This document shows positions 24,931-63,747 of a DNA stretch of 64,000 nucleotides, piece by piece. A model generated the notes under the pieces. It made no database searches. It saw only the letters and a program-made list of their open reading frames with translations, and was not told where the DNA came from. The stretch spans positions 145,700,001-145,764,000 of the forward strand of contig NC_091984.1 in NCBI RefSeq assembly GCF_044704955.1. Direction: 5' to 3'. The stretch is from Pristiophorus japonicus (taxonomy: Eukaryota). Positions within the stretch are counted from its first letter, which is position 1. Every line of letters begins with the position of its first letter. Made by a program: the position numbers and the translations under genes.

Positions 24931-25037
24931 ATAACGACCTGGCTCTCATCATTCAGGCCATAATTTCGGGATTTGTTCACCCCACTGAGGACAAACACCG
25001 TCGATGGGCCATTAATGGGCCTTAAGTTTTCAGCTCA

Positions 25038-29900: not shown

Positions 29901-29959
29901 TTTTTTATTATCAGGATTATATTATCAGGGTTATATTCTCACTGTCTGTCATTGTCACA

Positions 29960-30265: not shown

Positions 30266-30708
30266 AGTTTCTATAGCATTGTCGGTTGTACCTGGCAACA
30301 GAACGTCTCTGTGTGGATATACCCCATGCACCGAGCTCCACGGTGAGGACTCCCACAGTGGAATGGCCTGCCGATGCTCGCTGCAGTGCAGAGTGGCTGC
30401 TGAACTGCCAATCAGTCTGAGACACCGCCTCACGAGCGGACGAGGAGATACATGCTGAGATCCACCATCAAATGACACGTGGGGAACTGGAAATGATTCT
30501 GCAAATCTGACTGGAGGTTTGGTCCAAACGGGTTTTACAAACCAATCAATTGAGTGACACAGAAATTGTCCAAAAATTTGTTTTTTTCAGAACCAACATC
30601 GCCCCCTTTTGGTATGAAGACAGCACTGTCAATTTCCCTCACAATTTGACTGAGCTTCAATTTTCAATGTCTCCTCACGTGGCTCGTTGTCAATCTTTAT
30701 TTTATAAC

Positions 30709-39892: not shown

Positions 39893-41297
39893 GCCCCCAC
39901 TCCCCTCCCCCCACTGCCACTCCCCTCCCCCCACTGTCCCCACTGCCACTCCCCTCCCTCCACTGCCACTCCCCTCCCCCCACTGCCACTCCCCCCACTG
40001 CCACTGCCCCAGTGTCACTCTCCCCCCCGCACTGCCACTCCTCCACTGCCACTCCCCCTCCCCCCGCTGTCACTCCCCCCTCACCCCACTTCCCTGCCCC
40101 CACTGCCACTCCCCCTCCCCAAACTGCCACTCCCCCTCCATCCACTGCCACTCCCCTCCCCCCACTGCCACTCCCTCTACTGCCACCTCCCCCTCCCCTG
40201 CCACCACTCCCCTCCCCCCACTGCCACACCCCTCCCTCCACTCCCCATCCCCCCACTGCCACTCCCCTCCCCACACTGCCGCTCCCCCACCCCCCACAGC
40301 CACTACCCCTCCTCCCACTGCCACTCCCACTCCCCCACTGCCGCTGCCCCAACCCCCACAGCCACTCCCCTCCTCCCACTGATTCCCCCCACTGCCACTC
40401 CCCTCCACCCACTGCCACTCCCCCACTGCCACTCTCCCCCCCCCACTGCCACTCCCCCTCCCCCACTGCCACTCCTCCTACCCCCACTGCCCCTCCCCCA
40501 CTGCCACTTCCCCTTCCCCCACTGCCACTCCCCCTCCCCCCACTGCCACTCACCCACCCCCCACTGCCCCACCCCAGCCTGCCACTTCCCCTTCCCCCAC
40601 TGCCCCTCCCCCTCCCCACACTGCCACTCCCCTCCCCCCACTGCCACACCCTCTCCCCCCACTGCCACTCCCGCTACTGCCACTCCCCCCTTCCCCACTA
40701 CCACACCCCTCCCCCACTTCCCCCACTCCCCTCCCCCTCCCCTCATGCCGCTCCCCCTCCCACTCCCCCCACTGTCCCTCCCCCTCCCCCCACTGCCACT
40801 CCCCGGCCTGCCACTTCCCCTTCCCCCACTCCCCCTCCCTCCATGCCACTCCCGCTCCCCCCACTGCCACTCCCCTCGCCCCACTGCCATACCCTCTCCC
40901 CCCCACTGCCACTCCCGCTACTGCCACTCCCCCCTTCCCCACTACCACACCCCTCCCCCACTTCCCCCACTCTCCTCCCCCTCCCCTCATGCCGCTCCCC
41001 CTCCCCCCACTGTCCCTCCCTTTCCCCCCACTGCCACTCCCCCTACCCCCACTGCCACTTCCCCTTCCCCCACTGCCCCTCCCCCTCCCCCCACTGCCAC
41101 TCCCCCTCCCCCCACTGCCACTCCCCCTCCCCCCACTGCCAGTCCCCCTCCCCCCACTGCCCCTCCCCCCATTGCCACTTCCCCTTCCCCCACTGCCCCT
41201 CCCCCTCCCCCCACTGCCACTCCCCCTCCCCCCACTGCCACTCCCCCTCCCCCCACTGCCTTTCCCCGCTCCCCCCACTGCCACTCCACTGCCGCCC
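39893..41297. repeat. C-rich minisatellite, copy 2
   Basis: Same core as 18942-20420, with different length and unit order. Confidence 0.95.
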
Positions 41298-42630
41298 CAG
41301 GCCGAGATGGGGCAGTCTACAGCCGGGCCATCTAGGCCCAGAGCTGCTCGAGATGGTCCGGCAAGGCCATTCGCAGCCTCCCCCACTAAAAGTCAGCAGC
41401 CTTCCACCATCCATGCTGCAGCCCCTGGGGTAGCACTGTACAGGAGCACTCACTCGGACAGCCAAAGATACACGCAAGGCACCCACTGAGGGTATTCACA
41501 ACGGGGTTAGTTGAGTTTGTGATGTAATATTGGATGGATTGTTATATAACGTTGGGTTGGAATGTTTGTGTTGGGGGGGCCTTTATTGTGGCTGTGGGGC
41601 CAAGTGCTGGGTGTGATGGTCAGTTAGAGAGGGACAGCAAAGTGTGGGACTATTGGTCAATGGGGAGTGGGGGTTGGGTTCACTGGTACCACACTCGGAG
41701 GATTCGATCATGGACAGCCCGGGCAGAAAGGGGCTGTCTGGGTCACTACTCCCTTCCACTTCATCCTCCTCTTCCTTTTCCTCCTCCCCAGCTGCTCACT
41801 GTACACCTGGTGACAAGGACAGTGCCCTCCTGATGGTCGAGGTTGTGGGGCACGCAGCGGGCCACGACCAATCAGGACACATGTTCTGGTGAGTACAGCA
41901 GCACTCCTCCAGAGCGGCCCAGGCCGTGGAAGCATTGTTTCAGGACACCAATGTTCTGCTCCATCAGATTGTGTGTGGCAGCATGGCTCTCATTGTCCTC
42001 ATGCTGCCCACGTGTGGTTGGGTTGTGGAGCAGAGTCATGGAGCCCATGGTCAGTGGATAGCCCTTGTCGCCCAGTAGCCAGCCTCTGGTTTGTCTCGGT
42101 GGCTCAAAGACTGAGGGGGCAGCGGCCTGGTGCAGAATAAAAGCATTGTGACTGCTGCCAGGATACCGGGCATTCAGCATCATGATACGGATAGAATGGA
42201 CCCATTTCCCTCAGCAGAGGGGTCAACAACCAGGGGGCATAGATTTAAAGTAATTGGTGGCAGGTTTAGAGGGGAGATGAGGAAACAATTCTTCACCCAG
42301 AGGGTGCTGGGGGTCTGGAACTCATTGCCTGAAAGGGTGGGAGAGGCAGAAACCCTCACCACATTTAAAAAGTACTTGGATGTGCCCTTAAAGCGCCGTA
42401 ACCCACAGGGCTACGGACCCAGAGCTGGAAAGTGGGATTAGGCTGGGTAGCTCTTTGTTGGCCGGCGCGGACATGATGGGTCGAAATGGCCTCCTTCCGT
42501 GCTGTAATTTTCTGTGATTCTATGATCGTGCTGGTGGTGTTGACCACTTTAAAAATCGCAGCATACATTTTATTGAAGCTATTTCCGTCCCCAGTTTCCC
42601 CGCTGCCAATAATTGGATCAATCGATGTTG

Positions 42631-42646
42631 TAGCGCCCCCTTGTGG
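42631..42646 (-). promoter_or_regulatory. Candidate CTCF site (duplicate)
   Basis: Identical CCACAAGGGGGCGCTA on the minus strand. Confidence 0.6.
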
Positions 42647-45600
42647 TACATCTAAATGGGCTCCACACAAACCCCTGCTTTCAACCCTTGAACCCACATT
42701 GCCTACGCTAGCTGGAGCCCTGCTCCTTCGTCACAGCATCTCACAGCATAGAGGGAGGCTATTTGTCCCGTCAAACCTGTGCTGGCTCTTTGAAAGAGCT
42801 ATGGACTACTATGGCCTGGACCAATGATCCAGAGACACGAGTTCAAATCCCACCATGGCAGCTGGGGAATTTAAATTCAGTTCATTAAATAAATCTGGAA
42901 TACAAAGCTAGCGTCAGTAATGGTGACCATGAAACTGCCGGATTGTCGTAAAAACCCATCTACCTGGCCTGCTACCTTCAGGGATCTGTGGACATGCAAA
43001 CCAAGGTCCCTTTGTTCCTCTACACCTTTCAGTGTCCTGCCATTTAATGTGGATTCCCTTGCCTCGTTAGCCCAAATGCATGATCTCACACTTCTCTGGA
43101 TTAAATTCCATTTGCCATTGTTCTGCCCACCTGAACATTTCATTGATATATTCCTGCAGTCTACAGCTTTCTTCTTCATTATCAACCACACGGCTAATTT
43201 TACTATCATCGAACAAAATTCTTAATCATACCCCCTACATTCAAATCTAAATCCTCGATAGACACCACAAAAAGCAAGGGACCTTGTACTGAGCCCTGCG
43301 GAATCCCACGGGAAACAGCCTTCCAGTCACAAAAACACCCATCAACCATTACACTTTGCTTCCTGCCTCTGAGACAATTTTGGATCTAGCTTGCCACTTT
43401 GCCCTGGATCTCATGGGCTTTTACTTTCGATACCAGTCTGAAAAGTGGGACCTTCTCAAAAGTCTTGCTAAAATCCATAGACACTACATCAAACGCACAG
43501 CCCTCATCGACCCTCCACACACAGATTACCTTTATGGTCTCAATTAGGCCAATCTCTTTCTTTAATTATCCTCCTGCTCTTAATGTATTTATTAAACATC
43601 TTTGTGTTTTCCTTGATTTTACTTGCCAAAATGTTTTCATTCTCTCTCTTTCCTAATTTTCTTTTTAATTGCACCCCTGCACTTTCTATACTCCTCTAAA
43701 GTTCCTGCAGTATTGAGCCCTCGGTATCTGTCACAAGCCTCCCTTTTTTACTTTATCCTACACTGTATTTCACTTGACATCCAGGGGCCTCTAGATTTGT
43801 TAGTCCCACACTTTTTCTTTAAGGGAACAGACTTACTCTGAAACCACAGGATTTCCTCCTTGAATGCCTCCCACTGCTGAGATACTGATTTACCTTCAAG
43901 TAGCCGTTTCCAGTACACTTTGGCCAAATCTCATCTCAGCTCAGCAAAATTGGCTTTTCCCCAACTGAGTACTTTTATTCCTGGTCTATATTTGTCCTTT
44001 TCCATAACTACCTTAAATCTAACTGAATTATGATCATTAGCACCAAAATGCTCTCCCACTGATACCCCTTCCATCTGCCCCTTTTCATTCCCCAAAACCA
44101 AGTCCAGAACCGTCCCCTCCCTTGTCGGGCTTGATACATACTGGCTAAAAAAGTTCTCCTAAATGCATTTTAAGGAATTCCGCACCCTCTGTACCTTTCA
44201 CACTAATTTTAATATTAGGGTAGTTGAAATCCCCTACTCTTACTGCCTTATAGTTTTTTGCACTTGTCAGAAATGTGCCCACATATTTGCTCTTCTATCT
44301 CCCTCTGACTGTTTGGGGGTCTATAATACACTCCCAGCAGTGTGATTACTCCTTTTTTGTTCTTCAATTCGACCTATATAGCCTCATTTGATGATCCTTC
44401 CGACATATCATCCCTCCTCACAGCTGTAATTGTTTCTTTCAATTGTTTCACAACTGCGACCCCCTCCTTTTTTATCCCCCTCTCTATCCCGTCTGAAATC
44501 CTGTAACCAGGAATGTTGAGCTGCCATACCTGCCCTTCTTTCAGCCATGTCTCAGTAATAGCTATAATATCGTACTCCCAAATGTCTATCTGTGCTCTCA
44601 GCTCATCTGCCTTATTCCCTATACTCCTTGCAATGAAGTATATACCATTTAGCACTGCCAAACTGCCTTGTTGTCTATTTTCTAGGTTTGTTTCCTCTGT
44701 CTTCCAAATTCACTTTCTACTTTTCTGCTTTCAAATTCCAGCTTTGCTTCTCTCCCAACTGTATCTATTCTCCGTGACCCATCCCCTGCCAAGTTAGTTT
44801 AAACCCTCCCCAACAGCACTAGCAAAGCCCCCGCGAGAATATTGGTCCCAGTTCCGTTGAGGTGCAACCCGTCCGGCTTGTATAGGTCCCACCTCCCGCA
44901 GAAACGGTCCCAATGCCTCAGGAAACTAAAGCCCTCCCTCCTGCATCATCTTTCCAGCCACGCATTCATCTGCTCTATCCTCCTATTTCTGTACTCACTA
45001 GCACGTGGCACCGGGAGTAATCCGGAGATTACTACCTTTGAGGTTTTGCTTTTTAATCTCTCTCCAAGCTCCCAAAACTCTGCCTGTAGGACCTCATCCC
45101 TCTTTCTACCTATGTCATTGGTACCGATATGGACCACAACCTCTGGCTGTTCACCCTCCCCCTCAGAATGTACTGCAGCCACTCAGTGACATACTTGACC
45201 CTGGCACCATGCAGGCAACATACCATCCTGGAGCCACGTCTGCGGCCGCAGAAATGCCTGTCTGTTCCCCTAACTATCGAATCCCCTACCACTATTGCTC
45301 TTCCACTCTTCTTCCTCCCCGCTGTGCAGCTGAGCCACCCGTGGTGCCATGGACTTGGCTCTGGCTGCACTTCCTAGAGGCACCATCGCCCCCACCAGTT
45401 CTCAGAACACAATACTGGTTGGAGAGCGAGATGGACTCAGGGGACTCCTGCACTACCTGCCTGGACCTCCTCTTCTGTCTGGTGGTCACCCATTCCCTCT
45501 CTGCCTGCACACTCTTAAGCTGCGGGGTGGCCACCTCTAGAAACGTGCTATCCACGAAGTTCTCAGCCTCGCGGATGCACCGCAGTGACTCCAGCCGCCG

Positions 45601-47356
45601 CTCAATCTCCGAAACGCGGAGCTCGAGTTGCTGTAGCTGACACTTTCTGCACATGTGGTCGTCTAGGCCACGAGAAGTGTCCAGGACTTCCCACATGCCA
45701 CAGGATGTGCTCTCCATGGGACAGAACTGCCCTGCCATGCCTCTATTTAAAAGACTGAGAACTAACTTCGCAGAAATAAACTTAAAACGAAGAAAAAACA
45801 AATAACAACCCTGCCCTCATCATTCAGGCCATAATTTCGGGATTTGTTCACCCCACTGAGGACAAACACCGTCGATGGGCCATTAATGGGCCTTAAGATT
45901 TCAGCTCAGTCAGCTGTGGCTCAATGGGCAGCACACTCACCTCTGAGTCTGAAAGTTGTGGGTTCACGTCCCACTCCAGAGACGTGAAACGGATAGCACC
46001 CAGTGAGTCGTGTCCACCTCCTGTGAGCCGTGTCCATGAATGGTGTACGTGAGCCGTGTCCATGCTGGGCCTGCGGATCATTAACTGGGCCGCACTTCAC
46101 TTGCGGGGTGAAATTTATCGGGAGGTGCGTGCTGTCGCACCCCGTCATTAGTTTTTGACGATTTACCGGTCGGGCCTTTCTGTGCCGATGTGGTGGGGTC
46201 GATGCCGCGATGGTGCAGCCCGAAACTCGGCGCTGAGCCCACCCCCAGGGGAAGTGCAGCGCGCCACATTGCGCTCCATTTCCTGTCAGGTGTCGTGACC
46301 CCAATTCCGCTTCCAGGGCGGGATTTCGACGTGGGAAAAGTTACCGCCCCAACCGGGGCAATACGCAATTTGGGCCCATTATCTGGTCATAGCCACATGT
46401 GGGAGCTTGCTGTGCACAAACTGTCTGTCATGTCTTCTCTATTACCGCAGTGACTATACTTCAAAAGTACTTCATTGGCTGTAAAGCGTTTTGGGACATC
46501 CTGAGGTGGTGAAAGGCGCTATATAAATGCAAGTCTTTCTTTCCAATTCAGCTCGACATCTATGAAACCCAAACTCGCGGACAGTGACGGACAGGTAAAG
46601 ACCCTGTGGTCCATCCAGCCCGTCCCACACAATTGCAATACCTTGTATATCACAGTATCGACTCTCCACCCCACCCAAAACTACCTGATCTCCTGGGAGA
46701 GGCGAAAAACTAGGTAAAAAGCCCATTGAGGGGAAATAAATCTGGGAAACTCCTCTCTGACCTCTGCGCCCGCGCCCCCCCCTCCCCCCCGCCTGCAGGC
46801 GATGGAAACTACTCCAGGAGGTGACTGTGGCCCTGAATTCCCTGCAGTAACTACCTTCTGTAAGTGGTGATCTCCGCACCGGCCACAAACAGGTCCTGCT
46901 CTCGCTTATGTACAGCTCATGGATTTAAAATTACAAGCTTTCCCCACAGTGTCAAGTGCTGCAAATACGTGTTACATAGAAACATAGAAAATAGGTGCAG
47001 TAGCAGGCCATTCGGCCCTTCGAGCCTGCACCGCCATTCAATAAGATCATGGCTGATCATTCACTCAGTGCCCCTTTTATGCTTTCTCGCCATACCCCTT
47101 GACCCCTTAGCCATATCTAACTCCCTCTTGAATATATCCAATGAACTGGCATCAACAACTCTCTGCGGTAGGGAATTCCACAGGTTAACAACTCTCTGAG
47201 TGAAGAAGTTTCTTCTCATCTCAGGCCTCAATGGCCTACCCCTTATCCTGAGACTATGTCCCCTGGTTCCGGACTTCCCCAACATCGGGAACATTCTTCC
47301 CGCACCTAACCTGTCCCTTCCCGTCAGAATCTTATACATTTCAATGAGATCCCCTT

Positions 47357-49863
47357 TGTTGGGGAGGGCATCAAACTGGAAATTAGGGGTGCATGTAATA
47401 AAGGTGCAGCAGTTATCATGAGTTACTTTAATATGCATATAGATTGGGCTACCCAAACTGGAAACAATACGGTGGAGGAGGATTTCCTGGAGTGCATAAG
47501 GGATGGTTTTCTAGACCAATAAGTTGAGGAACCAACCAGGGGGGAGGCCATCTTAGACTGGGTGTTGTGTAATGAGAGAGGATTAATTAGCAATTTCGTT
47601 GTGCGAGGCCCCTTGGGGATGAGTGACCATAATATGGTGGAATTCTACATTAGGATGGAGAATGAAACAGTTAATTTAGAGACCATGGTCCAGAACTTAA
47701 AGAAGGGTAACTTTGAAGGTATGAGACGTGAATTGGCTAGGATAGATTGGCGAATGATACTTAAGGGGTTGACAGTGGATGGGCAATGGCAGACATTTAG
47801 AGACCGCATGGATGAACTATAACAATTGTACATCCCTGTCTGGCGTAAAAAATAAAAAAGGGAAGGTGGCTCAACCGTGGCTATCAAGAGAAATCAGGGA
47901 TAGTATTAAAGCCAAGGAAGTGACATACAAATTGGCCAGAAATAGCAGTGAACCTAGGGACTGGGAGAAATTTAGAACTCAGCAGAGGAGGACAAAGGGT
48001 TTGATTAGGGCAGGGAAAATAGAGTACAAGAGGAAGCTTACAGGGATCATTAAGACAGATTGCAAAAGCGTCTATAGCTATGTAAAGAGAAAAAGGTTAG
48101 TAAATACAAATCTAGGTCCCCTGCAGTCAGAATCAGGGGAAGTAAGAACTGGGAACAAATAAATGGCAGACTAATTGAAAAAATACTTTGGTTCGCTATT
48201 CACTAAGGAGGACACAAACAACCTTCCGGATATAAAAGGGGTCAGAGGGTCTAGTAAGAAGGAGGAACTGAGGGAAATCCTTATTAGTCAGGAAATTGTG
48301 TTGGGGAAATTGATGGGATTGAAGGCGGATAAATCCCCAGGGCCTGATGGTCTGCATCCCAGAGTACTTAAGGAGGTAGCCTTGGAAATAGCGGATGCAT
48401 TGACAGTCATTTTCCAACATTCTATTGACTCTGGATCAGTTCCTATCGAGTGGAGGGTAGCCAATGTAACCCCACTTTTAAAAAAATTAGGGAGAGAGAT
48501 AACAGGGAATTATAGACCGGTCAGCCTGACATCGGTAGTGGGTAAAATGATGCAATCAATAATTAAGGATGTCAAAGCAGTGCATTTGGAAAGAGGTGAC
48601 ATGATAGGTCCAAGTCAGCATGGATTTGTGAAAGGGAAATCATGCTTGACAAATCTTCTGGAATTTTTTGAGGATGTTTCCAGTAGAGTGGACAAGGGAG
48701 AACCAGTTGATGTGGTGTATTTGGACTTTCAGAAGGCTTTTGACAAGGTCCCACACAAGAGATTAATGTGCAAAGTTAAAGCACATGGGATTGGGGGTAG
48801 TGTGCTGATGTGGATTGAGAACTGGTTGGCAGACAGGAAGCAAAGAGTAGGAGTAAATGGGTACTTTTCAGAATGGCAGGCAGTGACTAGAGGGGTACCG
48901 CAAGGTTCTGTGCTGGGGCCCCAGCTGTTTACATTGTACATTAATGATTTAGACGAGGGGATTAAATGTAGTATCTCCAAATTTGCGGATGACACTAAGT
49001 TGGGTGGCAGTGTGAGCTGCGAGGAGGATGCTATGAGGTTGCAGAGTGACTTGGATAGGTTAGGTGAGTGGGCAAATGCGTGGCAGATGAAGTATAATGT
49101 GGATAAATGTGAGGTTATCCACTTTGGTGGTAAAAACAGAGAGACAGACTATTATCTGAATGGTGACAGATTAGGAAAAGGGGAGGTGCAAGAGACCTGG
49201 GTGTCATGGTACATCAGTCATTGAAGGTTGGCATGCAGGTACAGCAGGCGGTTCAGAAAGCAAATGGCATGTTGGCCTTCATAGCGAGGGGATTTGAGTA
49301 CAGGGGCAGGGAGTATTGTGTACAGTTTTGGTCTCCTAACTTGAGGAAAGACATTCTTGCTTTTGAGGGAGTGCAGCGAAGGTTCACCAGACTGATTCCC
49401 GGGATGGCGGGACTGACATATCAAGAAAGACTGGATCAACTGGGCTTGTATTCACTGGAGTTCAGAAGAATGAGAGGGAATCTCAAAGAAACGTTTAAAA
49501 TTCTGACGGTTAGACAGGTTAGATGCAGGAAGAATGTTCCCAATGTTGGGGAAGTCCAGAACCAGGGGTCACAGCCTAAGGGGTAAGCCATTTAGGACCG
49601 AGATGAGGAGAAGCTTCTTCACCCAGAAGTGGTGAAACTGTGGAATTCTCTGCCACAGAAAGTTGTTGAGGCCAATTCACTAAATATATTCAAAAAGGAG
49701 TTAGATGTAGTCCTTGCTACTAGGGGGATCAAGGGGTGTGGCGAGAAAGCAGGAATGGGGTACTGAAGTTGTATGTTCAGCCATGAACTCATTGAATGGC
49801 GGTGCAGGCTCGAAGGGCCGAATGGCTTACTCCTGCACCTATTTTCTATGTTTCTATGTTTCT
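47357..49863 (+). mobile_element. CR1 LINE, duplicate of 26493-29048
   Basis: 349-aa RT ORF 48175-49224; 45-bp deletion at ~49311 relative to copy 1. Confidence 0.92.
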
Positions 49864-51523
49864 ATCCTTCTAAACTCCAGTGAATAAAGGCCCAGTTGAT
49901 CCAGTCTCTCCTCATATAACAGTCCAGCCATCCCTGGAATTAGTCTGGTGAACCTTCGCTGCACTCCCTCAATAGCAAGAACGTCCTTCCTCAGATTAGG
50001 AGACCAAAACTGAACTCAATATTCCAGGTGAGGCCTCACTAAGGCCTTGTACAACTGCAGTCAGACCCCACTGCTCCTATACTCACATCCCCTAGCTAAG
50101 AAGGCCAACAAACCATTTGCCTTCTTCCCCCCCTGCTGTACCTGCACGCCGACTTTCAAAGACTGATGAACCATGACACCTAGGTCTCACTGCACCTCCC
50201 CTTTTCCTAATCTGCCGCCATTCAGACAATATTCTGCCTTCATGTTTTTGCCCCCAAAGTGGATAACCTCACATTTATCCACATTATACTGCATCTGCCA
50301 TGCATTTGCCCACTCACCTAACCTGTCCAATTCACTCTGCAGCCTCGTAGCATCCCTCCCACAGCTCACACTGCCACCCAGTTTAGTGTCATCTGCAAAC
50401 TTGGAGATATTACACTCAATTCCTTCATCCAAATCGTTAATGTATATTGTAAAGAGCTGGAGTCCCAGCACTGAGCCCTGCGGCACTCCACTAGTCACTG
50501 TCTGCCATTCTGAAAAGTGCCCATTTATCCCAACACTCTGCTTCCAACCAGTTCTCTATCCACGTCAGTACATTACCCCCAATACCATGCTTTGATTTTG
50601 CATAGCAATCTCTTGTGCGGGAACTTGTCAAAAAGCATTTTGAAAATCCAAATATACCACATCCACTGGTTCTCCCTTGTCCACTCTACAAGTAACATTC
50701 TCAAAAATTCCAGAATTTTTTATTATCAGGATTATATTATCAGGGTTATATTCTCACTGTCTGTCATTGTCACAACACTCGCTATATAAATGCAAGTTGT
50801 TGTTGTGTTCAGGGCCGCTGTATCTGGCTCAGGCTTCTTATCCATCCCCACTTCCCTTCCCCCTCTATTGGGGGCCGTGCCTTCAGCTGCCTGGGCCCTA
50901 ACTCCCTGCTCCCTAAACCTCTCTGCCACTCCACCCCTCTCCTCTTTTAAGACCTCCCTTCAAACCCAATCTGTGACTGAGGGTTTTGATCACCCTCCCA
51001 GCCCCTCCCCCTTTGGCTCAGCACCACTTTGACCAGATTACGCCTCTGTCAGCTGCCTTGGGATGTTGTTCTAATGTTCCAGTTTCTATAGCATTGTCGG
51101 TTGTACCTGGCAACAGAACGTCTCTGTGTGGATATACCCGATGCACCAAGCTCCACGGTGAGGCCTCCCACATTGGAATGGCCAGCCGATCCGCGCTGCA
51201 TTGTGGAGTGGCTGCTGACTTGCCAATCAGTCTGAGACACCGCCTCACGAGCGGACGAGGAGATACACGCTGAGATCCACCATCAAATGACATGTGGGGA
51301 ACTGGAAATGATTCTGCAAATCTGACTGGAGGTTTGGTCCAAACAGGTTTTACAAACCAATCAATTGAGTGACACAGAAATTGTCAAAAAATGTGGTCTT
51401 TTCAGAACCAACATCGCCCCCTTTTGGTATGAAGACAGCACTGTCAATTTCCCTCACAATTTGACTGAGCTGCAATTTTCAATGTCTCCTCACGTGGCTC
51501 GCTGTCAATCTTTATTTTATAAC

Positions 51524-52649
51524 TGTTATGCTCGTAATAAAAGGTGAGACCGAGTACTGTGTGTAATGAGCAAGTGTGACCTTAGCTCCTTTATTGTAGT
51601 TCCAGAGTGCAGGTACTTCGTGGGTGGCCTGCTTATAGACTGTACTCCCAAGGGATGCTGGGATCCCTTGGAACTCCAACAGGTCGGCACTCTGGTGGAC
51701 AGGTCTGATGCAGGTTACAAGGTTACAAGGGGTTAAATACATGACATCACTCCCCCGTGAAGTCAACAATACAATTACATGGTGAGACGATCTGGGTCTC
51801 TGCACTCCCTTGTCAATCGTCTCGGTACAAATGTTGATATGATTGGGTTGGTCAGTTCTTCATTGGACTGTTGGGCAGCCGGCCTTGCCGAGCTGCTGGT
51901 GATGACGAGTTCTGTTTCCTGGTCAACTGTGATGTCAGTTGCCACTTGTGTGTGTGTTGAAAGGTCAAAGTTGGTGGTGTCCTCCTGAGGTTGTCCGCAG
52001 CTGTTGGTGAATCGCAGTTTAATTTGGTCCAAGTGTTTTCTGTGCATTTGTCCATTGGTCATTTTGACCTCAAACACCCTACTCCCCTCTTTGGCTGTGA
52101 TCGTGCCAGCAAGCCATTTGGGACCATGTCCAAAATTGAGCATAAACGCAGAATCATTGATCTCAATATCGCGTGACATGTTTGCGCAGTCATGTACACA
52201 CTCTGTTGATGCCGCTTATCCTCCACATGATCATGCAGATCAGGGTGGGCCAGAGAGAGCATTGTTTTAAGCGCCCTTTTCATGAGCAGCTCGGCTGGGG
52301 GAATCCCTGTGAGTGAGTGGGGTCTGGTGCGGTAGCTGAGTAGTACTCGGGATAACCGATTCGGCAGGGAGCCTTCCGACACGCGTTTCAAGCTTTGCTT
52401 GATGGTCTGAACTGCCCGTTCTGCCTGGCCGTTGGATGCAGGCTTCAACAGCGGAGATGTGACATGTTTGATCCTGTTGCGGGTCATGAATTCTTTGAAT
52501 TCCGCACTAGTGAAGCATGGCCCATCGTCGCTGACTAGGACATTGGGAAGGCTGTGCGTGGCAAACATAGCTCTTAGACTTTCAATGGTGGCTGTGGACG
52601 TGCTTCCAGACATTACTGCACATTCAATCCATTTTGTGTCAGCATCCAC
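51524..52649 (-). mobile_element. Outer Gypsy 3' LTR and integrase remainder (copy 2)
   Basis: LTR 51524-51746; IN core within ORF 52059-52814. Confidence 0.9.
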
Positions 52650-55600
52650 TGTCATATATGCAACCTTCATGTAACTGTAACCTTCATGTAATAACACTGC
52701 ATACTGTATATTCCTAAGAAATGCACACCTTGACCACAGGGGGTAAACTTTTGGGAGACACTGCTCATCTGGTCTTCCAGGTATATAAAGGGAGGTCCCA
52801 TGCAGGGTCATCACTTCTTAAAGGTTCAGGTCACAGACTGACCTTCTCTGCAGAATGTGCCTCGTGTGAATTTATAGTAGGGTGTAAGGACATTACATTT
52901 GGCGACGAGAAACGGGAATCAACGACTCACGAGAATGGCCACCGGTAGCACAGAGGAACGGTACTATGTTGGTGAGGACTGGGACGATTTCGTTGAGAGG
53001 CTCCAGCAGAGCTTTTTCATGAAGGTCTGGCTGAGAGATGCAGCGGCTGACAAGCGAAGGGCGCATCTACTGACCAGCTGTGGACCTTAGACGTACGCGC
53101 TGATGAAAGACTTGCTCGCACCCGAGAAGCCGGTGGACAAAACCTTTGAAGAGCTCAGCAAACTGATCGGTGAGCACCTCAAACCGGCGAGCAGTATACA
53201 CCGACACCAATTCGATACACACTGACGTCGGGAAGGACAGAGCATACCGGACTTCGTTGCGGACCTTCGGCGCTCGGCCAGCCACAGTAAGTTCACAGAC
53301 GCCTGCAGTGGTGACATGTTAAGGGATTTCTTTATTGAGGGCATTGGTCAGGTCGGGATTTTCAGACAGCTAATTGAGACCAAGGACTTGACCTTGGAAG
53401 CGGTGGCGTTCATGGCTCAGACCTTCATGGCGGGGGAGGAGGAAACCAAGACAACTCTGCTTCCAATGAGGCAATGGATCAGGGAGTTAACATTGTAAAC
53501 GCGACTCAGAATCCCGCAGGCAGGCAAGGGCAATTCAACACCACTCAGGCAGCAACAGACTCGAGAGTGGGTCCTCAACAGAGAGAATGGCAGGTTGAAT
53601 GGACATTTACGCCATCACGGTGGACAATGCATCGCGAGATGGGGCCATTGACACCCACTAAAAGAGTGCTCAAGAGTAATCAAAGAGACAATCAGAGAGG
53701 AATGCCTGGTAACAGCCCTTTTGTTCACAACAATCTCAGCTCATGCTGGAGGTGCGGGGGCAGACTTGCTGCAAACACCTGTAGGTTTCAATAATTTATC
53801 TGTAGAAATTGTAACTTCAGTGGACATTTAGCCAGAATATGCAGGAAGCCTGCAGCGAGACTAATTTACGAGGCAGATGAACCAGAAGAGGGGTCTGCAA
53901 GGCAGGTTGATGCTTGGGACAAAGCTCATATACCAAAACGCCACCCATAATGATGAAAGTCCTATTAAACAGCATCCCCGGTACACATGGAGCAGGACAG
54001 AGGGGCCAGCCAGCCACTTAGGAGTGTCCAACAATTCGAGAAGTTATGGCCACTCCGAGCTAGCAGACCCAAACTAGAACGCATTGACACGCAATTACGG
54101 ATGTACACCAAAGAGATCATCCCAGTGCGAGGCAGTGCAATGTTGCTGGTCACACATAATGGATCAGAGAACCAGCTGCCACTCTGGAAAATGGTCCCGT
54201 GCTATTGCGGAGGAGCTGGCTAGCCGAGATGAACTGGAAATGGGGGGATGTGCACACCATTTCATCCGTGGAGTGAAGTTCATGCTCACAGGTCCTACAG
54301 AATTTTGAGTCACGATTTCAACCCGATGTCGGGACTTTCAAGGGTACCAAAGTAGTGATACGCATCACCCCAGACGCCAAACCAGTGCACCACAAAGCCA
54401 GAGCTGTGCCAGATGTGATGCGTTAGAAAATTGAGAGCGAGTTGTACAGGTTGCTAAGAGAGGGCATATTTATGCCCGTTGAATTCAGTGACTGGGCAAG
54501 CCCCATCGTCCCTGTCCTAAAAAAGGATGGCTCAGTCAGGATCTGTGGTGACTATAAGGCCACTATCAAACGAGTGGTTCTACAAGACCAATACCCGCTT
54601 CCGAGAGCGGAGGAACGTTTTGCCATTCTGGCAGGCAGCAAGCTGTTCACCAAGTTGGACCTCACTTCAGCCTACATGACCTAGGAACTTGCCAAACAAT
54701 CCAAGCTACTGACAACCATCACCACGCACAAGGGGCTGTTTGTCTACAATAGGTGTCCATTTGGCATTCAATCAGCAGCCACTATCTTTCAAAGGAACAT
54801 GGAAAGCCTGCTCAAATCCATCCCTGGAACAATCGTATTTCATGACGACATCCTTATCACGAGTCGAGACACCGAGGAACACCTCCACAACCTGGAGGAG
54901 GTGCTACGCCGACTGGACCGAGTAGGCCTGGGACTAAAGAAGTCCAAGTGTGTGTTTTTGGTCCCAGAGGTCGAGTTTTTGGGCAGGATAGTTGCTGCAG
55001 ACTGGATCCGGCCTTCCGAAACCAAAGCGGAGGCAATTCGTCGTGCGCCCAGGCCCGGCAACACATCGGAGTTGCGTGCACTTCTGGGACTCTTGAACTA
55101 TTTCGGGAACTTACTGTCGAACTTCAGCACATTGTTGGAGCTGCTACACATGCTCCTGTGTCAGGGTTCCGATTGGTTTTGGGGGTCTGTCAGGAACGGG
55201 CTTTCAATCGGGCGCGGAACCTGCTTTGTTCAAATAAGCTGTTGACCCTGTACAAACCCTGTAAGAAATTGGTTTTGACATGTGATGCACCATCCTATGG
55301 GGTTGGGTGCGTGTTACAGCAGAATAATGATGAGGGCCAACTCCAAGTTGTGGCTTATGCCTCCAGGTCGCTCTCCCAAGCAGAATGCGGATATGGGATG
55401 GTTGAAAAGGAAGCACTTGCATGTGTCTACGGGGTGAAAAAGATGCACCAGTACCTTTTTGGCAGAAGGTTTGAGTTAGAAGCGGACCACAAGCCGTTAA
55501 CATCCCTGTTGTCAGACAACAAAGCTGTCAATGCCAATGTGTCAGCTCGCATACAGTGATGGGCTCTCACACTGGCTGCGTATGACTACACCATACGGCA

Positions 55601-55723
55601 CCGGCCAGACACCGAAAATTGTGCTGACGCGCTCTGCAGGCTTCCACTGGCCACCACAGAGGGGGCAGCGGAGCAAAGTGCTGAGATAGTCATGGCCATT
55701 GATGCCTTTGACAGCGCAGGCTC
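52650..55723 (+). mobile_element. Inner Gypsy (copy 2), truncated after RNase H
   Basis: 5' LTR 52650-52897, PBS, gag, PR, RT, RH; identity to copy 1 stops at ..GCAGGCTC 55723. Confidence 0.92.
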
Positions 55724-56633
55724 GCTGTTCTTTAACAGTTCAGTCAAATGTTTGGGTAATGGTGGGATATAGTATCCAACACGCGATATGTATCCCTCGA
55801 GGTTCGTAACATATCATTGACTGTAATATAGATATGTTTGTGGTCTGAGATAGGAATTACCCTTTCTTGTGCTAACTGTGCCTCTACCTGGGGTTTGAAA
55901 CAAAAGGAAGAATCTGTCAGCATTTTAGGGAGAGGTTTTAATCTGCTTGCGATCAGTTCGGTCGCATTTACTGCCTTTGATCAAGGTCACACAGGAATCA
56001 AAACCCTGCGTCCAATTCATTCCTGACCTGAAATCCTGTCATTGTCATTTAAAAACAATCCCCACACCTCCCCTGCACTTGTGGCTAGATCCAACCACAC
56101 AGACATAAATCCCTTGTTCCGCCATCCACCACTTTTCCCAACACAATTTCACCCCTTCTCTTGTTCCTGTGCTCCACCTGTTTGAGTTATTACCCAGTTT
56201 CTCCCATTCTGTGGATGCATTAACTTTTCCCCTGACTGTTTTCTGTAACCACCACCACCCTCCCATGGGGGTAATCCCTTTACATTCCAGACAAACTCGT
56301 CTCCCCTCTCTCACCCGTACATTCCTGGTCGTGATGTTTACCCTGGGGCAGGACACTGACACCTCCCCAAGTTTACCCTCGGTTTGTCTGGAGTACTTGG
56401 TCGAATTTGACCCTAACCACCCTGGCCAGCTCCCAGTGTGAGCAGAGGTGTTTGTGCCCTTGTTGCTCCGTATGGCTCCCCCTTGAGTTACAGTGGGGCC
56501 AGTTCCTCCCATACACCCGTGTGTAAGGAATGTCTCGGTGTCTCCCCGATCTCCCAATCCTTTAATAATAATGGCCATCCACAGGCCTATCCACAACGTC
56601 CACCTCCTCTCGTACCCTTGGCTCGATTCGCTC
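55724..56633 (-). pseudogene. Env-position ORF, N-terminal part with signal-like segment and Ig-like motif; truncated
   Basis: Acceptor TATTTCTTTCATTTTTGTCTTTATAG (AG 56635-56634); RRWTLWIGLWMAIIIKGLG; N-glycosylation sequons NTS, NST, NIT, NAS, NNS; ORF 56045-56596. Confidence 0.6.
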
Positions 56634-56899
56634 CTATAAAGACAAAAATGAAAGAAATACCTTTGCTCTGTGGGGCCTCCCCCTCACAGGTCCTCCTTCA
56701 GTTATTCACAGATGTACATAATTCCTTTTTACAATCACTGCTTCCCTCTCCTTTTATCCCGATGCTTGGGCTTACAGAGGCTCGGGGGTGGAGATGGAGG
56801 AGGTGTCCAGGGCACCCTAGGTCACAGTACCTGACCACTCCACCTTACTGCTCCGTCCCTTACTTCTCCATCCTCATCATCTCACAGTATTGGTGGGAG

Positions 56900-59800
56900 G
56901 CTTACACTGATCAAACTCATTATTGTTCCTGGGGCCTTCGCCCGCTTTTTACTTTTCTCTCCAGGGTTGTACAGCTTACACTGGTTTATATGGAACCATT
57001 TTATATGTTTTGGCAGCTGGATCGCGTACACCATAGGGCTTGCCTTGTCTACAATGCTATATGGTCCTTTGTACAATGGTTCAAATGCCCCTATTCTGGT
57101 ATAATTCCTGACCATTACCTGATCCCCTACCCTCCATTCCTGTGTAACTCGGGGTTCCAGCAGCAGTTTATTCTGCTGGTGCTGCCTGCCCATATTGTGA
57201 GCTGCTTCCCAATGCAGCCCCTTCAGAGTACCATACAGATCTGACAAACCTGTCCCATGTGATCTCTTTAACCTGCGTTTCAGTCAGGACTGGTGCTAGG
57301 ATATGGGTCGGGGTCATCATTAGTCTCCCTGTCATCATGGCATGTGGGGAGTGTCCCGTTCTCTTAGAGAGACTGGCTCGGTGGCTCATCAGTATTCGGG
57401 GTAGGGTCTCACCCCATTTCTTCGGGGTATCTCCTATCTCCTTCCTAAGCCTCTCTTTTAAGGTCCGGTTTGTCCTCTACTGGATCTAACGATTGGGGAT
57501 TATACGTCACATGCCATTTCCCCTGTATCCCTAACAGCTTTAGGGTGGCCTGCATTACTGCTCCGGTGAAATGACTCCCTTGATCTGATTCCACTATCAG
57601 GGGCAGTCCCCATTGAGAAAATACTTCTCGCACCAGAACCTTTGCTGTGACTATCGCGGTGGCCGCCCGACATGGAAAAGCTTCAACCCATTTTGTAAAG
57701 AGATGTATTAACACCAAGCAATATTTATTGCCTCTGCCTGAGGTGGACAGTGGCCCAATTAAATCTATCTGTATAGACTGCCATGGCCCCTCTACCCTCC
57801 TCGTGTGTCCCAACGGAACCTTCCTCGGTGAGGGTGTGGATTGTTTGTGGCACATACCAGACAATTCTGGCAATAATCCCTGACATCACTTCTAAGCCCG
57901 GGCCACCATCCCATGACTTCTAATTTATTCCACATTGTTTCTGGCCCTGGATGTCCAGCTCCTGGACCCACATGCACCAGCTGCAAGAATTCTTCCCTGC
58001 ACTGCCCTGGCACGATCCAACTATCTCCCTTGAACAACATTCCTTGCTTTACTGCTATGTCTGCAGCTCCCAAAGGTCCCAATGCAGACTTCCCGTCTAT
58101 TTTGTCCCTAATCGCTGCTCTAAGGTCAGCATCCCGTAGCTGAGCCTGTTTTAAATCAGGCGGCAATGGTACTTCTTTGGGCCCCTCTCTGCCTGTTACA
58201 GCCATGATCTGTCCACAGTGACATGGGTCCCAAGGTGTCCCTTCTCCTGCCCCTGATTTAGCCAGTGTGTCTGCTTTCTCATTGCCTTCCCACTTGGGCT
58301 ATATCTTAGATTGTGCTTTGACCTTTTGGATGTAGTAACCCTTCTGGTCCGTACCCGTGACATCCAAAATGACTTTTAACAATGGAACCATCACCAACCA
58401 TTTTCCATCTGAGGACTTAAACCCTCGCTTCGCCAATATGGCTAAATACTCTGTACAGGAGTTAGAAATGAACATGGAGTCTGAACATATCGTACAGGGA
58501 GTTGGGAATTCGTTCGGGTGTGTGACTACATACGCTACTGCTGCTAGCTCGGCCTGCTGCGTACTTAAAGTGTTGGGGATTTTATGGCTTTCTCTATCCC
58601 TGTCTAAGGATCGTAAATCCCTCAGCCTGTCTTTCTCTCTCTGTTTATTACTGAACTAGACCCATCTACATAGACGTCCCTGCCTGTCAGGTGTTCCCCT
58701 GCTCAGAATCCCACATCTACATCCCACTCTCCTTCCACTGAACACACATGAGCTGCCCCCAGATAAACCAGGCTCGGGGCGAGCTTTGGTTCTCCTGACC
58801 TCTCGACCTTCAGGTCTAACTGAGTCAGCAACAATGTCCAGCGGGCAATCCTGTTACTGCTCACTGTCCCATCTTTCATTCTACCATCCAGTAACATTTG
58901 TGTCGTGGTGTGACAGGTCAGTAAAGTTACTGTAGCTAACCCTGTGAGCGACCGAAAATGCTTCACTGCCCAACATATTACTAACAGATGTCGTTCGCAA
59001 TTCGAAAAGCTCTTTTCTACTTCTTTAAGAACTCGGGAGACGTAGGCCACCGGTCTCAGCTTGCTGTGTCGCTCCTGGAGTAACACTGCACTCAAACTGT
59101 CCCCAGTCATTGCTACCTCCAGACTAAAGTCCTGGTCCCCATTTACTGCTCCCGACGCTGGTGCTGTCTGTAACACCTCTTTTAACCGCATGAAAGTTTC
59201 CTGACAACTCTCACTCCATTCCCACTCTACTCCTTTCCTAAGAAGTCTCAACAAAGGAGCTGCCATAGTTGTATATCCCTCTATGAATTCCCTGCAGTAA
59301 CCCGTTATTCCCAGGAAAGACCTTACTCCAGACACGTCCTTAGGAACAGGTAGTTCCTGGACTGTCTTTCTCTTAGCTCCATCTATGGCCCTTTCTCCTG
59401 CCCCAATGGTCAAACCTAGAAACTGCACCTCCTCTTTGCCTATTTGAGCTTTCTGGAGATTTACTTTAAAACCTGCTTCTTTCAACAAATGCAGTAACTC
59501 ACTGAATAATGGCCCGTGGTCCTCCGCACTTTCGGAGAATAACAACAGGTCATCCACGTGTTGGACCAACCGATCTGGCTGACTAAAACCGTTTAATGCC
59601 TCGGTCATACTCTGGTGAAAGATCGAGGGACTGTTGTGAAACCCTTGTGGAAGACATGTCCACATATACTGCTGACCTTTAAAGGTAAAGGTAGATTTAT
59701 ACTGGTCCTCCCGTCTCAGGGGAATGGACCAAAACCCGTTTGAAATGTCCAGCACTGTGAAAGTTGTTGTGGCCGCAGGGATACTCCCGATCAAATCCGC

Positions 59801-60627
59801 TACCACTGCTACCGTGGGCGCACAGGCTGGAATATTTTTATTCAGGATTCGGTCATCTACCGTGGCCCTCCATGAGTTATCGGGCTTCTTTACTGGTCAT
59901 AGGGGTGAATTTACATGTGTGGCTATGGTCCTCAGCACACCTTGATCCACCAGGGAATTTATAGCAGTTTCCAAATCCCTTTCTGCTTCCTGGGGAAAAT
60001 TATACTGTTTCTGGGGTCATGTCATCCAATCCCCATCTATCTTCACCTCTACCCTAGATACTATCCTGCAATCGGGCTTGTGCATTGCAAACGCATCCAT
60101 ATTCTCCCGTACATACCTTGATGCCGGGCCGGAATGTTATCGACTAATCGTTCTCAGTCATAACTCTCTTTCGGCTTCATCGTGCAGGTGCTGCCTTTGT
60201 CTGCACTGTCCCTGGGAATCACTACGATCTCTCCCATCTTATCTGCATCAACTGCCCCCCATAGACAATTGTTTTCCATATCCACTGTGGTGTGGTGTGC
60301 CAACATGTAGTCGGCCCCGAGAACTCCCGAACCGGGCTGTTCCCACTTCATTAAAATGCCCTCCCATTTCATTATGTTCGGTCCTAACTCTACGGTTCAG
60401 GGTTTCCACACTGCCACAGCCTGCTCATTACCCGTAAAACCCACCAGTGTAAATGGTACTCTGCTCGACCACGGGGAAGTGGTCGGATTCTGTGAGTGGA
60501 CAACCGTGCTAAAGGCTCCTGTATCTACTAGATCCCTTCCCCTAACTGTTTCCACCTTCACATCCACACATGGCCTGCCCCACCCATCATATATGAGCAG
60601 ACACAGGTATTCTGGCTGGGCACACCG
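56900..60627 (-). pseudogene. pol: pro-pol (protease, RT, RNase H tether, RNase H, integrase)
   Basis: LVDTGA (60517-60525); LDISNGFW, LPQGFHNSP, HVDDLL; tether FSLEVA..PVAYVSRVL..RIARW; RH YVDGSS..QQAELAA..SDS..GNEKADTLAK (~58250-58680); IN HHCC, QIDLIGPL, SDQGSHFT, GPY. Confidence 0.9.
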
Positions 60628-62229
60628 TCACAGTGGGGGTGCCGACACATTGGGTCCCTTTTCTCCCACTGCTGCGTCCAGCTTTCCTCCACCCGTGCCC
60701 ATAACCTGCTGTAATGCGGCCACTAAAACCTGCACTGGGTCGTCGGCTACCTTCTTCTGGCCTTTTCCTGCCTCAGCACCTCGTACCCTGGCTTCCCTCC
60801 TTTAGAGAGCCTACAATCCTTGCTCCAGTGTCCCAACTTCCCACAGTTAAAACATTCACCTTTCGATCGACCCGCATTACCTCCCTCTTGTCTCCTTTCT
60901 TTCTATGGCCTAACCTCTCCTTTTACTTTGTGTACCTTCCCGTTTAGTTTCTCCTCCTCCCCTTGCCTGGACTTAAAGCGAGAGTTAATCTTCTCAGGAC
61001 CCCTGCCTCTGTATTCTGGAGATGGTCTGGGTCAAACCATGCTTCAACCTTTGCTCTGAGCCGTGGCAAACTGTTACCATTACGGTTCTCAGCCAATGGT
61101 CCCTGGGTTCCCCTATTAAATCTGCCCGCACCAGATTTCCTCCAGCAGCCCTAAAATAAATCGCCCACAGTCTGTCTGCAAACGTATCGGGCGATTCGTT
61201 TACTTGCTGCCTAGTCTGTTCTACCTGCCAGAACGGACTACCCTGACTGTACCCGAGCACTGCCATCATTTGCTCCTTTAAGCCCTGTGGGGTTCCTGCA
61301 CCTAACTTGGTGGCTGTCGACAAGCTCTGATAAAGCTTCCCCTCCAGCGAGAGCAGTGTTAGCTTCACTTTCTCCTCCTCGCTGCAGTTATTGATACCCC
61401 CTATCTGCTCTATATTAGTAAAATGAACGGAGGCATCTCCTCCTTGCTTTAACTGTACCACACCCGTCAGCATCTCCTGCAGCTGAAGCGGTGTGTATGG
61501 GATCACTAGTCGCTCTGTAATGGTGCCGGACCACCATTTGGTGGGGGTGGGCCGAATTTCTGCTGCCTCAAAGGACACATAGGTTTCGGGGGTCCCGGTG
61601 CCTCGGGAGCCGGCCGATGCTCGCTATACTCGGGCCCATCGTCTGACTCTTTCCCCTCTGGATCCCAATCTTCCTCACCTGTTCCGGGTGCCCTGAGACA
61701 AACCATCCCTTTGGTCCTGTCTAACTCTGCCGTTAATTGGTGCATCTTTTCCTTACAAGGTCCGTGATCTGCTCTCACATAACCCTGTTTCTGAGCTACC
61801 TGATAGGCTATCGACTCTCCTGAGCTGGTCCTCTGCCTCTTTGGCTCTTTCTAAATGCCTTTCACTTTGTTCAATGTGGGTCTGCTGCTGCTTTTTGCAC
61901 TCGGTCACCTGGCATTGTAAATACTCAAAGTGATTCCGTGCCATTTCTTCATTCCTACCCTGGTTCTGCCTTTCCTTCTCCAAACTGCCTACCTCGCCCT
62001 TTAACCCTTTATTCTCCTCCTCCAGCTTTCCTACCCTTTCTCTTAACAGTTGTGTCTGCTTCTGCAGGCACATGAGCCAAACCGCCTTCTCTTTTGACCC
62101 TTTGTGGTTACTACTGACTGTCCACTCTGCCGCTTTTTCCTGCGGATCCCCAGAGTGCAGCATTTCCCGTGCCCATGGCTCTGAAATGTCCAATTTGTTG
62201 CCTATATATCCAGCTACCTTAGCCTCCAT
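60628..62229 (-). pseudogene. gag: gag (N-terminal coiled coil, capsid-like region, CCHC knuckle), frameshifted
   Basis: ATG at 62229; ORFs 61753-62229, 61506-61778, 60994-61578 (Q..NESPDTFADRL, MHR-like); CFNCGKLGHWSKDC at ~60813-60855; ends VSAPPL*. Confidence 0.8.
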
Positions 62230-62324
62230 GGACTACCTACGACTGCTCTAGCCACGGGCTCTACCGCGTTTTGCTGCGGTGAGTCCATTTCCAGTGCCTC
62301 TGGCTGAGAAATTCTCCCTGACTA

Positions 62325-62965
62325 CCTTGGTGTCCCCTGAGACCACCTCGCAGTGACCTGCGGTTCCTGTTACTCTGGCTTCTCTCTGTGGCTACCCTAG
62401 TCGACCCGAGACTACTCCGGCCTGTCAGAGACTTTCTCTCCTGGTCCTCTAGTCGCCCTTGAGATCACCCTTGGCCTCCCTGAGACTATCAGCGACTACT
62501 ATTGGCTTTTCTCTGTGACCACCCCAGTCAACCGAGATTACTCCAGACTATCCGAGACTGTTTCTCTCCTCAGGCTGCCCTGGCCGCCTGTGAGATTATC
62601 CCTGGCCTCCCTGACACCCCTGCGCAGACTACCTGCGATTACTTCTCCCAGTGGCTGCCCTAGTCAGCTGGAGCTCTTCGGCTACCCTGGTCCCCCTTGA
62701 GATTCCCTTGGTCTCCCTGAGACCCCTTCGCAGACTACCTGCGGCTTTCTCGGTGGCTACTTTAGTCAACCCGGGATTACTCCAGCCTAGCCAAGACTGT
62801 TCCTTCCTCTGCTGGCTGCCCTAGCTGTCCTTGAGAGTACAATGGTCTCCCTCAGACCACTGAGCAACTACCTGAGACTTCTTTTCTCAGTGGCTACCCT
62901 AATCGACGGAGACGACTCAAGCCTATCAGACCCTGTTACTCTTCTGGTCACCCTAGCTGCCCTTG
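62325..62965. repeat. Degenerate tandem repeats (~105-145 bp, ~5 units) in the proviral leader
   Basis: Recurring TCCCTGAGAC, GACTACCTGCG and GGCTACCCTAGTC blocks. Confidence 0.75.
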
Positions 62966-63085: not shown

Positions 63086-63090
63086 ATTTC

Positions 63091-63747
63091 TGTAGGTAGT
63101 TTGTTTTTCACTCTACTCTGATTCTTAGACCTGGGAACTTGTAGTGGGAAAGGACAACATGTGGCACAATATTTAGGCTTCACCCAGTGTCAGTTTTTTG
63201 TGCACAAAACCGTCAAAAACTACAGGACTAGACTTCTGAGAGAAATCAACTGAAACCATACAATTGCCCTTCCTGGCTGTAGCTATTGTAGGTTTGTGGT
63301 CATTGGTTCCGTGACCGGTTGGTTCTTCTTCTGGCCATTCTCTGCAGTGCTGTTCCTTCTGTGTACGTTCCGTACAACATGTCTTTCCGTCCGTTTGTTT
63401 GTTTGTTCTTTCGACCTGTGTCCATCTGTACATGTGTCCTTCTACTTCTCCTGTGTGCTTCTTCTTCCGTCTGTTCCTGTCCTTGTTCCATCTCCTGCTG
63501 AGCTGCTTCTAGCTCACATATTTATATCCAGGTTATGACAGATCTCCCACCACTGCGCTTTCTGATAAAGTGTTTGCATCAATACATTGTTTTGTGGTCC
63601 CCTTGGTTGATTGATTACAATAATGAACTCGTCTGTTTTCCCATTTGCACACTGAGTCTGCAAGGCTCAAGTTGATTTCTCATCTTAACACCTCATCCTA
63701 AAAAATGTGCAACTGTTGTGGTTCCTTTGTTGTCAGGTCCTTTTACA
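63091..63747 (-). repeat. Putative 5' LTR (~657 bp)
   Basis: Minus strand TGTAAA...CCTACA termini; ends 5 nt before the PBS; TATAAA at 63526-63521. The far boundary is inferred because there is no second LTR. Confidence 0.65.

Follow-up and report, generated by a model that had tools for sequence, protein, structure and literature searches.

The window analysed here is a stretch of 64,000 nucleotides from Pristiophorus japonicus (contig NC_091984.1, positions 145,700,001 to 145,764,000). It carries a decayed copy of a high-copy endogenous retrovirus with the layout LTR-gag-pro-pol-env-LTR, and the open reading frame behind the integrase is the broken 5′ end of its env gene. The following features were assigned:

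63090..63289, minus strand: LTR-like remnant, 72% identical over 202 nt to the region 3′ of env in a sister copy
60997..62232, minus strand: Gag fragments with an N-terminal coiled coil (coiled-coil Pfam matches) and a likely capsid (from position and conservation in LTR-paired copies)
60400..60627, minus strand: aspartic protease fragment (Pfam RVP)
58706..59896, minus strand: reverse transcriptase and RNase H-like tether (Pfam RVT_1, RT_RNaseH)
58302..58655, minus strand: second RNase H domain (Pfam RNase_H, E 7.7e-5)
56885..58298, minus strand: integrase with zinc-binding, core and C-terminal parts, with stops and frameshifts (Pfam Integrase_H2C2, rve, SH3_Tf2-1)
56048..56683, minus strand: 5′ part of env, 212 codons, with start methionine absent and a premature stop past which the frame reads on in other copies
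56634..56660, minus strand: polypyrimidine tract and AG, by sequence the likely env splice acceptor; the exon would start at 56633
56561..56602, minus strand: signal-peptide-like hydrophobic stretch, residues 28-41 (hydropathy)
56375..56551, minus strand: conserved pre-Ig segment of about 59 aa (conservation between subfamilies)
56051..56374, minus strand: Ig V/I-set-like domain (the head), residues 104-211 (motif, profile and structure searches, purifying selection)
55910..56047, minus strand: stop codon and remnant of the linker from the Ig-like head to the F-like part (sequence and copy comparison)
55910..55919, minus strand: internal-deletion junction, about 1.15 kb missing (comparison with dispersed loci)
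55721..55910, minus strand: C-terminal env ectodomain remnant, ending at a junction to Gypsy-type pol on the opposite strand

In the window copy, gag, pro, reverse transcriptase (RT), tether, RNase H and integrase are all broken. A long 5′ leader (62401-62960, minus strand) lies between the LTR remnant and gag and contains diverged direct repeats about 131 nt apart, with a possible role in packaging or splicing. In the 5.9-Gb genome, a search yielded at least 150 copies (150 of 8618 candidates were scored and all 150 matched). Near-identical array copies (94-100%), 24 in number, are located on contig C8 at 143-149 Mb and on three small contigs. Dispersed copies show 66-94% identity, and additional subfamilies at about 55-60% were found with the fusion part as query. 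The complete order LTR-gag-pro-RT-RH-IN-env-LTR was observed in two subfamily B loci with LTR pairs of 1410 nt (92.9% identity) and 1604 nt (94.8%); six regions were examined for such pairs and the other four gave partial or no pairs.

The frame of 212 open codons (56048-56683) is closed by a stop codon at 56045-56047. Its pyrimidine tract (56660-56636) is followed by AG at 56635-56634. A matching tract with AG was present in most subfamily A copies, and a tract with YAG preceded the env ATG in all five subfamily B copies inspected. The hydrophobic stretch reaches a Kyte-Doolittle maximum of 2.46 (averaged over 11 residues), and three of the five N-glycosylation sequons of the frame lie within the head. 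The pre-Ig segment is 48% identical between subfamilies, with pN (0.36) below pS (0.67), and has a pLDDT below 30 in the structure model. Key residues of the head are Cys134 in strand B, Trp143-145 and Leu180-x8-Glu189-x-Gly191-x-Tyr193-x-Cys195; further cysteines are found at 112, 181 and 203. A first-pass annotation of this DNA had described the open reading frame, the acceptor sequence, the signal-peptide-like stretch, the sequons and the Ig-like motif, and all of them were confirmed in the sequence. The pattern of its motif was recovered as well, but eight residues and not seven separate Cys134 from the first Trp, and the acid of the tyrosine corner is Glu in place of the canonical Asp.

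The env-start methionine of the dispersed copies is absent from the window copy and from all 24 array copies. Among the dispersed subfamily A loci, 18 distinct ones had a readable acceptor and 16 of these carried it; five locus entries without acceptor match were excluded from this count. The fusion part had been thought to be lost at 55724. There is indeed a break (at 55721), but it is a second one, and most of the fusion part disappeared at the internal deletion near 55915. This deletion removed the F2-like segment, the furin site, the fusion peptide, heptad repeat 1 and most of the Cys-rich region. Dispersed loci with both flanks contained 1109-1189 additional bases at the junction in 14 of 15 cases and 2061 in one, and the deletion is common to 17 of the 24 array copies. 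Heptad repeat 2, the transmembrane stretch (TM) and the 3′ LTR are missing from the window copy, which is probably a dead repeat. The junction to Gypsy-type pol at 55721 is also present in the loci L002-L004. A decayed Gypsy-type LTR retrotransposon occupies 51775-55723 on the plus strand, and several of the dispersed retrovirus copies are likewise interrupted by such an element. The segments 19069-34907 and 39890-55723 form a direct duplication of 15.9 kb with 96% identity, the second copy of which stops at the junction that cuts env.

The window sits within a large multi-cluster Ig light-chain array; clustered light-chain organisation is associated with cartilaginous fish. An intact Ig light-chain constant exon lies at 4176-4526 (plus strand), and fragments at 5573-6452 (minus strand) resemble a transposase, presumably of the Harbinger type. 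The constant (C) exon occurs in at least 93 copies with 85-100% identity (mostly 90-97%), nearly all of them on C8 at 143-149 Mb and on four small contigs, and the array copies of env are interspersed among them. This neighbourhood, and the fact that the matched 191 codons are stop-free in 17 of 24 array copies, would suit a truncated frame of the window type that was co-opted by the host as a secreted Ig-like protein and retained in the array. Such a co-option is nevertheless highly improbable: not one of the 24 array copies has the start methionine of the dispersed copies, seven contain stops, and the head showed no similarity to the neighbouring light-chain C exon (HHalign probability <1%). 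Because the identity of the array copies (94-98%) fits that of the array duplications, as seen in the C exons, the most plausible reading is a single insertion that was passively multiplied together with the light-chain array.

In the natural frames of other copies, a signal peptide, the pre-Ig segment, the Ig-like head, a Pro/Thr-rich linker and an F2-like segment are followed by an R-x-[K/R]-R-G site, a fusion peptide, a heptad repeat, a Cys-rich region, a second repeat and a TM. The longest natural frame (locus L051, 748 codons) comprises signal peptide, head, furin site and fusion ectodomain and exits the env frame before the TM. Another one spans the end of the head through the TM, and a subfamily A frame of 476 codons unites head, furin site and heptad repeat. 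The furin-type site was present in four out of four natural frames, and a TM stretch in L053. The Env identity of the window frame had been considered positional only, which no longer applies, as the head stands in one frame with furin site, fusion peptide, heptad repeat and Cys-rich region in less damaged copies. Furin site, TM and F-like region, which were to be looked for in other copies, were all found downstream of the head, and with the head in frame with the fusion protein there, the earlier reading as an accessory protein is not needed.

For the ectodomain, the top ESM Atlas clusters were Baculo_F/Gypsy Env (0.92-0.94) and Fusion_gly (0.92) with 189-204 shared features, and 47% of the members of the cluster matched at 0.92 were PF00523. 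With hmmscan, the fusion part gave no match to Pfam Fusion_gly or Baculo_F, and no F protein was among the PDB matches of env in phmmer and profile searches. The CX6CC motif of gamma-type Envs is absent from all four frames, including one that extends from HR1 to the TM. Nor is there a conserved CXXC as in the SU of those Envs, the single one of the subfamily A head not being conserved in subfamily B. Judged by Atlas and layout, the fusion part is likely, but not proven, to be an F-type class I protein like those of baculoviruses (F), errantiviruses and paramyxoviruses. It shares with baculovirus F, errantivirus Env and paramyxovirus F the Atlas features, the furin site followed by a Gly-started fusion peptide, the Cys-rich region and the HR2-TM arrangement, but the Env of the window family has about 240 extra N-terminal residues including the Ig-like domain.

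The head probably has an Ig fold. In Ig V/I-set domains, the cysteines of strands B and F are about 55-75 residues apart and the tyrosine corner reads D-x-G-x-Y-x-C. Cys134 and Cys195 are separated by 61 residues, within this range, and may form a disulfide. The strand-B cysteine is kept in 24/24 array copies, 24/25 dispersed subfamily A loci and 10/13 subfamily B/C loci, the strand-F cysteine in 24/24, 23/24 and 14/14, respectively, and the core strand-C Trp144 in 24/24, 25/25 and 12/13. In the tyrosine corner of the B/C loci, Gly and Cys are retained in 14/14 and Tyr in 12/14, with Glu in place of Asp. Retention of these key residues is well above the mean identity of the B/C loci (50%). The Ig proposal of the first-pass annotation is borne out in this respect: the Cys, Trp and G-x-Y-x-C positions are conserved among copies and the segment is present in other copies. 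A six-frame search of the window gave a single occurrence of the spacing pattern, compared with none in 100 base shuffles, a weak control as the pattern was set after seeing the sequence.

In the ESM Atlas, the head matched at 0.91-0.93; the ten best named matches all belonged to one family or clan, those listed being V-set, I-set or ig, and shuffles reach 0.9 in 4-10% of cases in a calibration that does not cover protein parts. The Pfam check proposed earlier found Ig_3 at E ≤ 1 (best 2.5e-4) for 14 of the 18 copies in the alignment, though none of the listed scores attained the gathering threshold (12.6-17 bits for the whole frame against a cut-off of 30 bits). Among the PDB profile matches at E ≤ 10, 33 of 36 were Ig-superfamily chains by name, for example CD8-alpha, CD79b and basigin. 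The best PDB profile match was an ArfGAP zinc finger (E 0.0022). A zinc-finger reading was rejected because the first Cys of the C-x-x-C is not conserved in subfamily B. A model from a 38-row alignment of the head has seven strands and no helix, and strands 1, 2 and 6 bear the Cys, the Trp and G-x-Y-x-C. The proposed structural check thus gave an all-β model, but its confidence is low: mean pLDDT was 35 (single-sequence, uninformative) and 42, with 50-60 over the head. With Foldseek, 45 of the 47 listed rows were, to judge from titles and lengths, antibody or VNAR chains, but the best E was 0.029 (to antibody V domains) and none reached E ≤ 0.001, in a PDB that is rich in antibody chains. With VIA-align, Ig domains gave Z 4.1-4.5 (rmsd 3.0-3.9 over 68-82 residues) and jelly-roll and pilin sandwiches Z 5.0-5.5, so that Ig is not separated from other sandwiches, which score as high or higher.

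This lack of separation, the sub-threshold level of all Ig scores and the relatives of the whole Env would agree with a viral β-sandwich that merely resembles Ig, ancient or convergent, and does not stem from a host Ig-superfamily gene. An env profile built from 42 natural fragments matched 48 proteins at E ≤ 0.001 (20 of these were looked up), and no cellular Ig protein was among the 48. Still, a mere lookalike is quite improbable in view of the canonical Cys-Trp-Tyr-Cys spacing, the convergence of four kinds of search on V/I-set and a weak V-set match (E 0.045) in the same slot of the distant relative P0049. Of the captured Ig-superfamily domain that had been proposed, the V/I-set likeness is upheld by several methods, but not the capture from a host gene, as no host donor gene for the head was found.

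The head is under purifying selection with a dN/dS of about 0.15-0.3. Compared with L051, it was 0.15 for L053 (82 codons), 0.16 for L067 (107 codons), 0.18 for L058 (107 codons, near saturation) and 0.31 for L055 (88 codons); the fusion part of L053 gave 0.07-0.24. Between the window copy and L051, the head had a pN of 0.33 and a pS of 0.79. The dN/dS values therefore mark the head as a constrained part of a replicating virus.

The named close protein relatives come from shark and skate. Skate proteins carry the same head with about 42% identity, and the head is probably an old acquisition common to shark and skate elements. Distant Envs have the fusion part in common and differ in the N-terminal region. 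By motif reading, Ig-like heads are present in Chiloscyllium P0025 (with an Ig-like name in UniRef), the frogs Pelodytes (P0037) and Mantella (P0055), and P0049. A Cys-rich head is found in Mustelus P0023 and Pristiophorus P0034, and P0058 and Latimeria P0059 are headless, which could be due to truncated gene models. In a tree of the fusion part (16 rows with four long branches, midpoint-rooted, remaining matches excluded as fragments), the Cys-rich group and the group of the window element fell on one supported side, and the headless P0058 was sister to the V-set-bearing P0049 (99/97).

Profile comparison of the head by HHalign gave probabilities <1% against P0025, P0049 and the frog Envs. 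With hmmsearch, the Pelodytes head reached 9.8 bits compared with 5.8 for the best shuffle (173 of 200 shuffles were reported), and the other tested heads scored no better than shuffles. Word-based protein searches, as weak evidence, returned no longer relatives of the head or of a 320-aa env piece, and phmmer of P0049 against the PDB gave 0 matches. The N-terminal slot is labile and swappable, and the Ig heads reflect either several gains or one gain followed by loss or replacement.

Among the relatives, the P0055 cluster of Mantella aurantiaca comprises at least 12 full-length F-like Envs of 677 aa with an Ig-like head on different contigs, which suggests a recent burst in a frog. P0049/P0063 (749 aa) is an F-like Env whose V-set-matching head apparently has no B-F cysteines, the pattern of CD2 and CEACAM N-domains; it is the best candidate for a separate, younger capture. 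In the predicted protein P0020, the env head is combined with eight or nine C2H2 zinc fingers, through either an error of the gene model or exonisation of an env fragment.

Concerning the virus lineage, the RT of L051 agreed with snakehead retrovirus (SnRV) at about 70 of 138 positions (about 51%) and with Loki-Xla at about 46 of 138 (about 33%), as counted by hand on the supplement alignment of PMC7947760 for these two references alone and outside any tree. In the PDB ranking, gammaretroviral and foamy RTs stood above Ty3. The closest named RT matches came from cartilaginous fish, coelacanth and amphibians, the hosts from which the SnRV clade is known; labels such as 'NYNRIN-like' on RT relatives in databases are automatic names and do not speak for the integrase sister to CGIN1 that marks lokiretroviruses. 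No RT relatives were found in a viral contig collection. A lokiretrovirus had been the first reading. The Env has the layout given for lokiretroviruses in the available text of PMC7947760, namely signal peptide, R-x-K-R-type site, fusion peptide, coiled coil and TM, with a likely similarity to paramyxo/pneumovirus F. The pol likewise has their dual RNase H (tether and RH), which is common to all retroviruses and hence non-discriminating. In contrast, that text mentions no Ig domain, the word 'immunoglobulin' is absent from the searched part of its supplement, and lokiretroviruses are reported there in 0 of 6 chondrichthyan genomes. The lokiretrovirus identity was set aside on the RT hand count, which leans against it; RT motifs and identity lean towards membership in the SnRV clade. 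SnRV-like endogenous retroviruses are described from elephant shark (CmiERV lineage I) in the accessible parts of PMC4422223 and PMC4977317. No description of an F-type Env or an Ig head in the SnRV clade was found, nor was the Env type of SnRV in the accessible parts of PMC12193657 and PMC3758190.

Ig domains had been taken by the first-pass annotation as not described from retroviral Env, which is contradicted by two precedents. In the available text of Hotzel (bioRxiv 10.1101/2024.03.17.585361), the RBD-C of gamma-type Envs (MLV RBD) is IgV-like, functional and swapped between lineages, a SIRP IgV domain was captured in ERV-S.1-Dbi, and newly captured domains are proposed to act as adhesins at first. 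As in the window family, the IgV-like domain is N-terminal, right behind the signal peptide, and the SIRP-like RBD class retains the B-F disulfide, the Cys pair of which is also present in the window head. However, the Env of the window element has no CX6CC and looks F-type, and the SIRP donor is obvious by BLAST, whereas the window head has no recognisable donor. The second precedent is nectin3 in place of env in CrocERV31 (Chong et al., available text of PMC4299795), again an Ig-superfamily sequence at the env position of a non-class-I/II endogenous retrovirus under purifying selection. In CrocERV31, env gave way to an entire host mRNA with three Ig domains; the window family keeps its fusion protein and adds one domain to it in the same frame.

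Env proteins with an Ig domain are thus not new, but for an Ig head on an F-type Env no precedent was found in print. The terms 'immunoglobulin' and 'Ig-like' gave 0 matches in the accessible text of the errantivirus survey 10.1101/2023.10.26.564294, and no Ig head on an F-type Env was found in the accessible parts of this survey or of 10.1101/2024.03.25.586437, PMC8922424, PMC13709493, PMC12440569, PMC2717909 and PMC4131045. Literature searches over openly accessible papers likewise listed no Ig domain on F-type or shark retroviral Envs.

Altogether, a likely Ig V/I-set domain encoded at the 5′ end of env fairly probably served, in the ancestral virus, as the attachment (receptor-binding) head of what is predicted to be an F-type class I fusion protein. 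The proposed function draws on position, selection, modularity and the analogy to the N-terminal IgV-like RBDs of gamma-type Envs. Splicing to the acceptor at 56634 would yield the env mRNA, and the Env precursor would be cleaved at R-x-[K/R]-R. After cleavage, the Ig-like head would remain on the N-terminal subunit with the Pro/Thr-rich linker as tether, and by binding a cell-surface protein it would bring the fusion subunit to the membrane. Paramyxovirus F depends on a separate attachment protein, the job of which the head may take over.

The head could also be an Ig domain with an accessory task, an adhesin or immune decoy, with the F-like part binding the entry receptor itself; it might then engage an inhibitory or adhesion receptor or shield the trimer with glycans. 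The headless P0058 and P0059, in which the fusion part apparently stands alone, the three of five sequons inside the head and the proposal of fresh captures as initial adhesins in the available text of Hotzel (10.1101/2024.03.17.585361) point in this direction. A purely accessory head is rather unlikely, however, as it is kept and under purifying selection in all examined subfamilies and a skate element, and the headless relatives may be truncated gene models.

A broader proposal can tentatively be made, which seems possible rather than probable: shark and skate retroviruses with SnRV-like Pol would use an F-type fusogen, and F-type Envs of aquatic vertebrates would repeatedly and independently have taken host Ig domains as N-terminal attachment heads. 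Such a repeated plug-in of Ig domains would be a parallel to the RBD capture of gamma-type Envs on an unrelated fusion scaffold, with a fusogen otherwise known among vertebrate retroelements from lokiretroviruses alone. Should the RT placement hold, an F-type env would lie within Retroviridae proper, which would bear on the four scenarios of env origin in the available text of Wang and Han (PMC7947760). A discrete, selected and swappable Ig-like head also offers a testable answer to how a retrovirus that has only one Env, of the F-type, could find its target cell.
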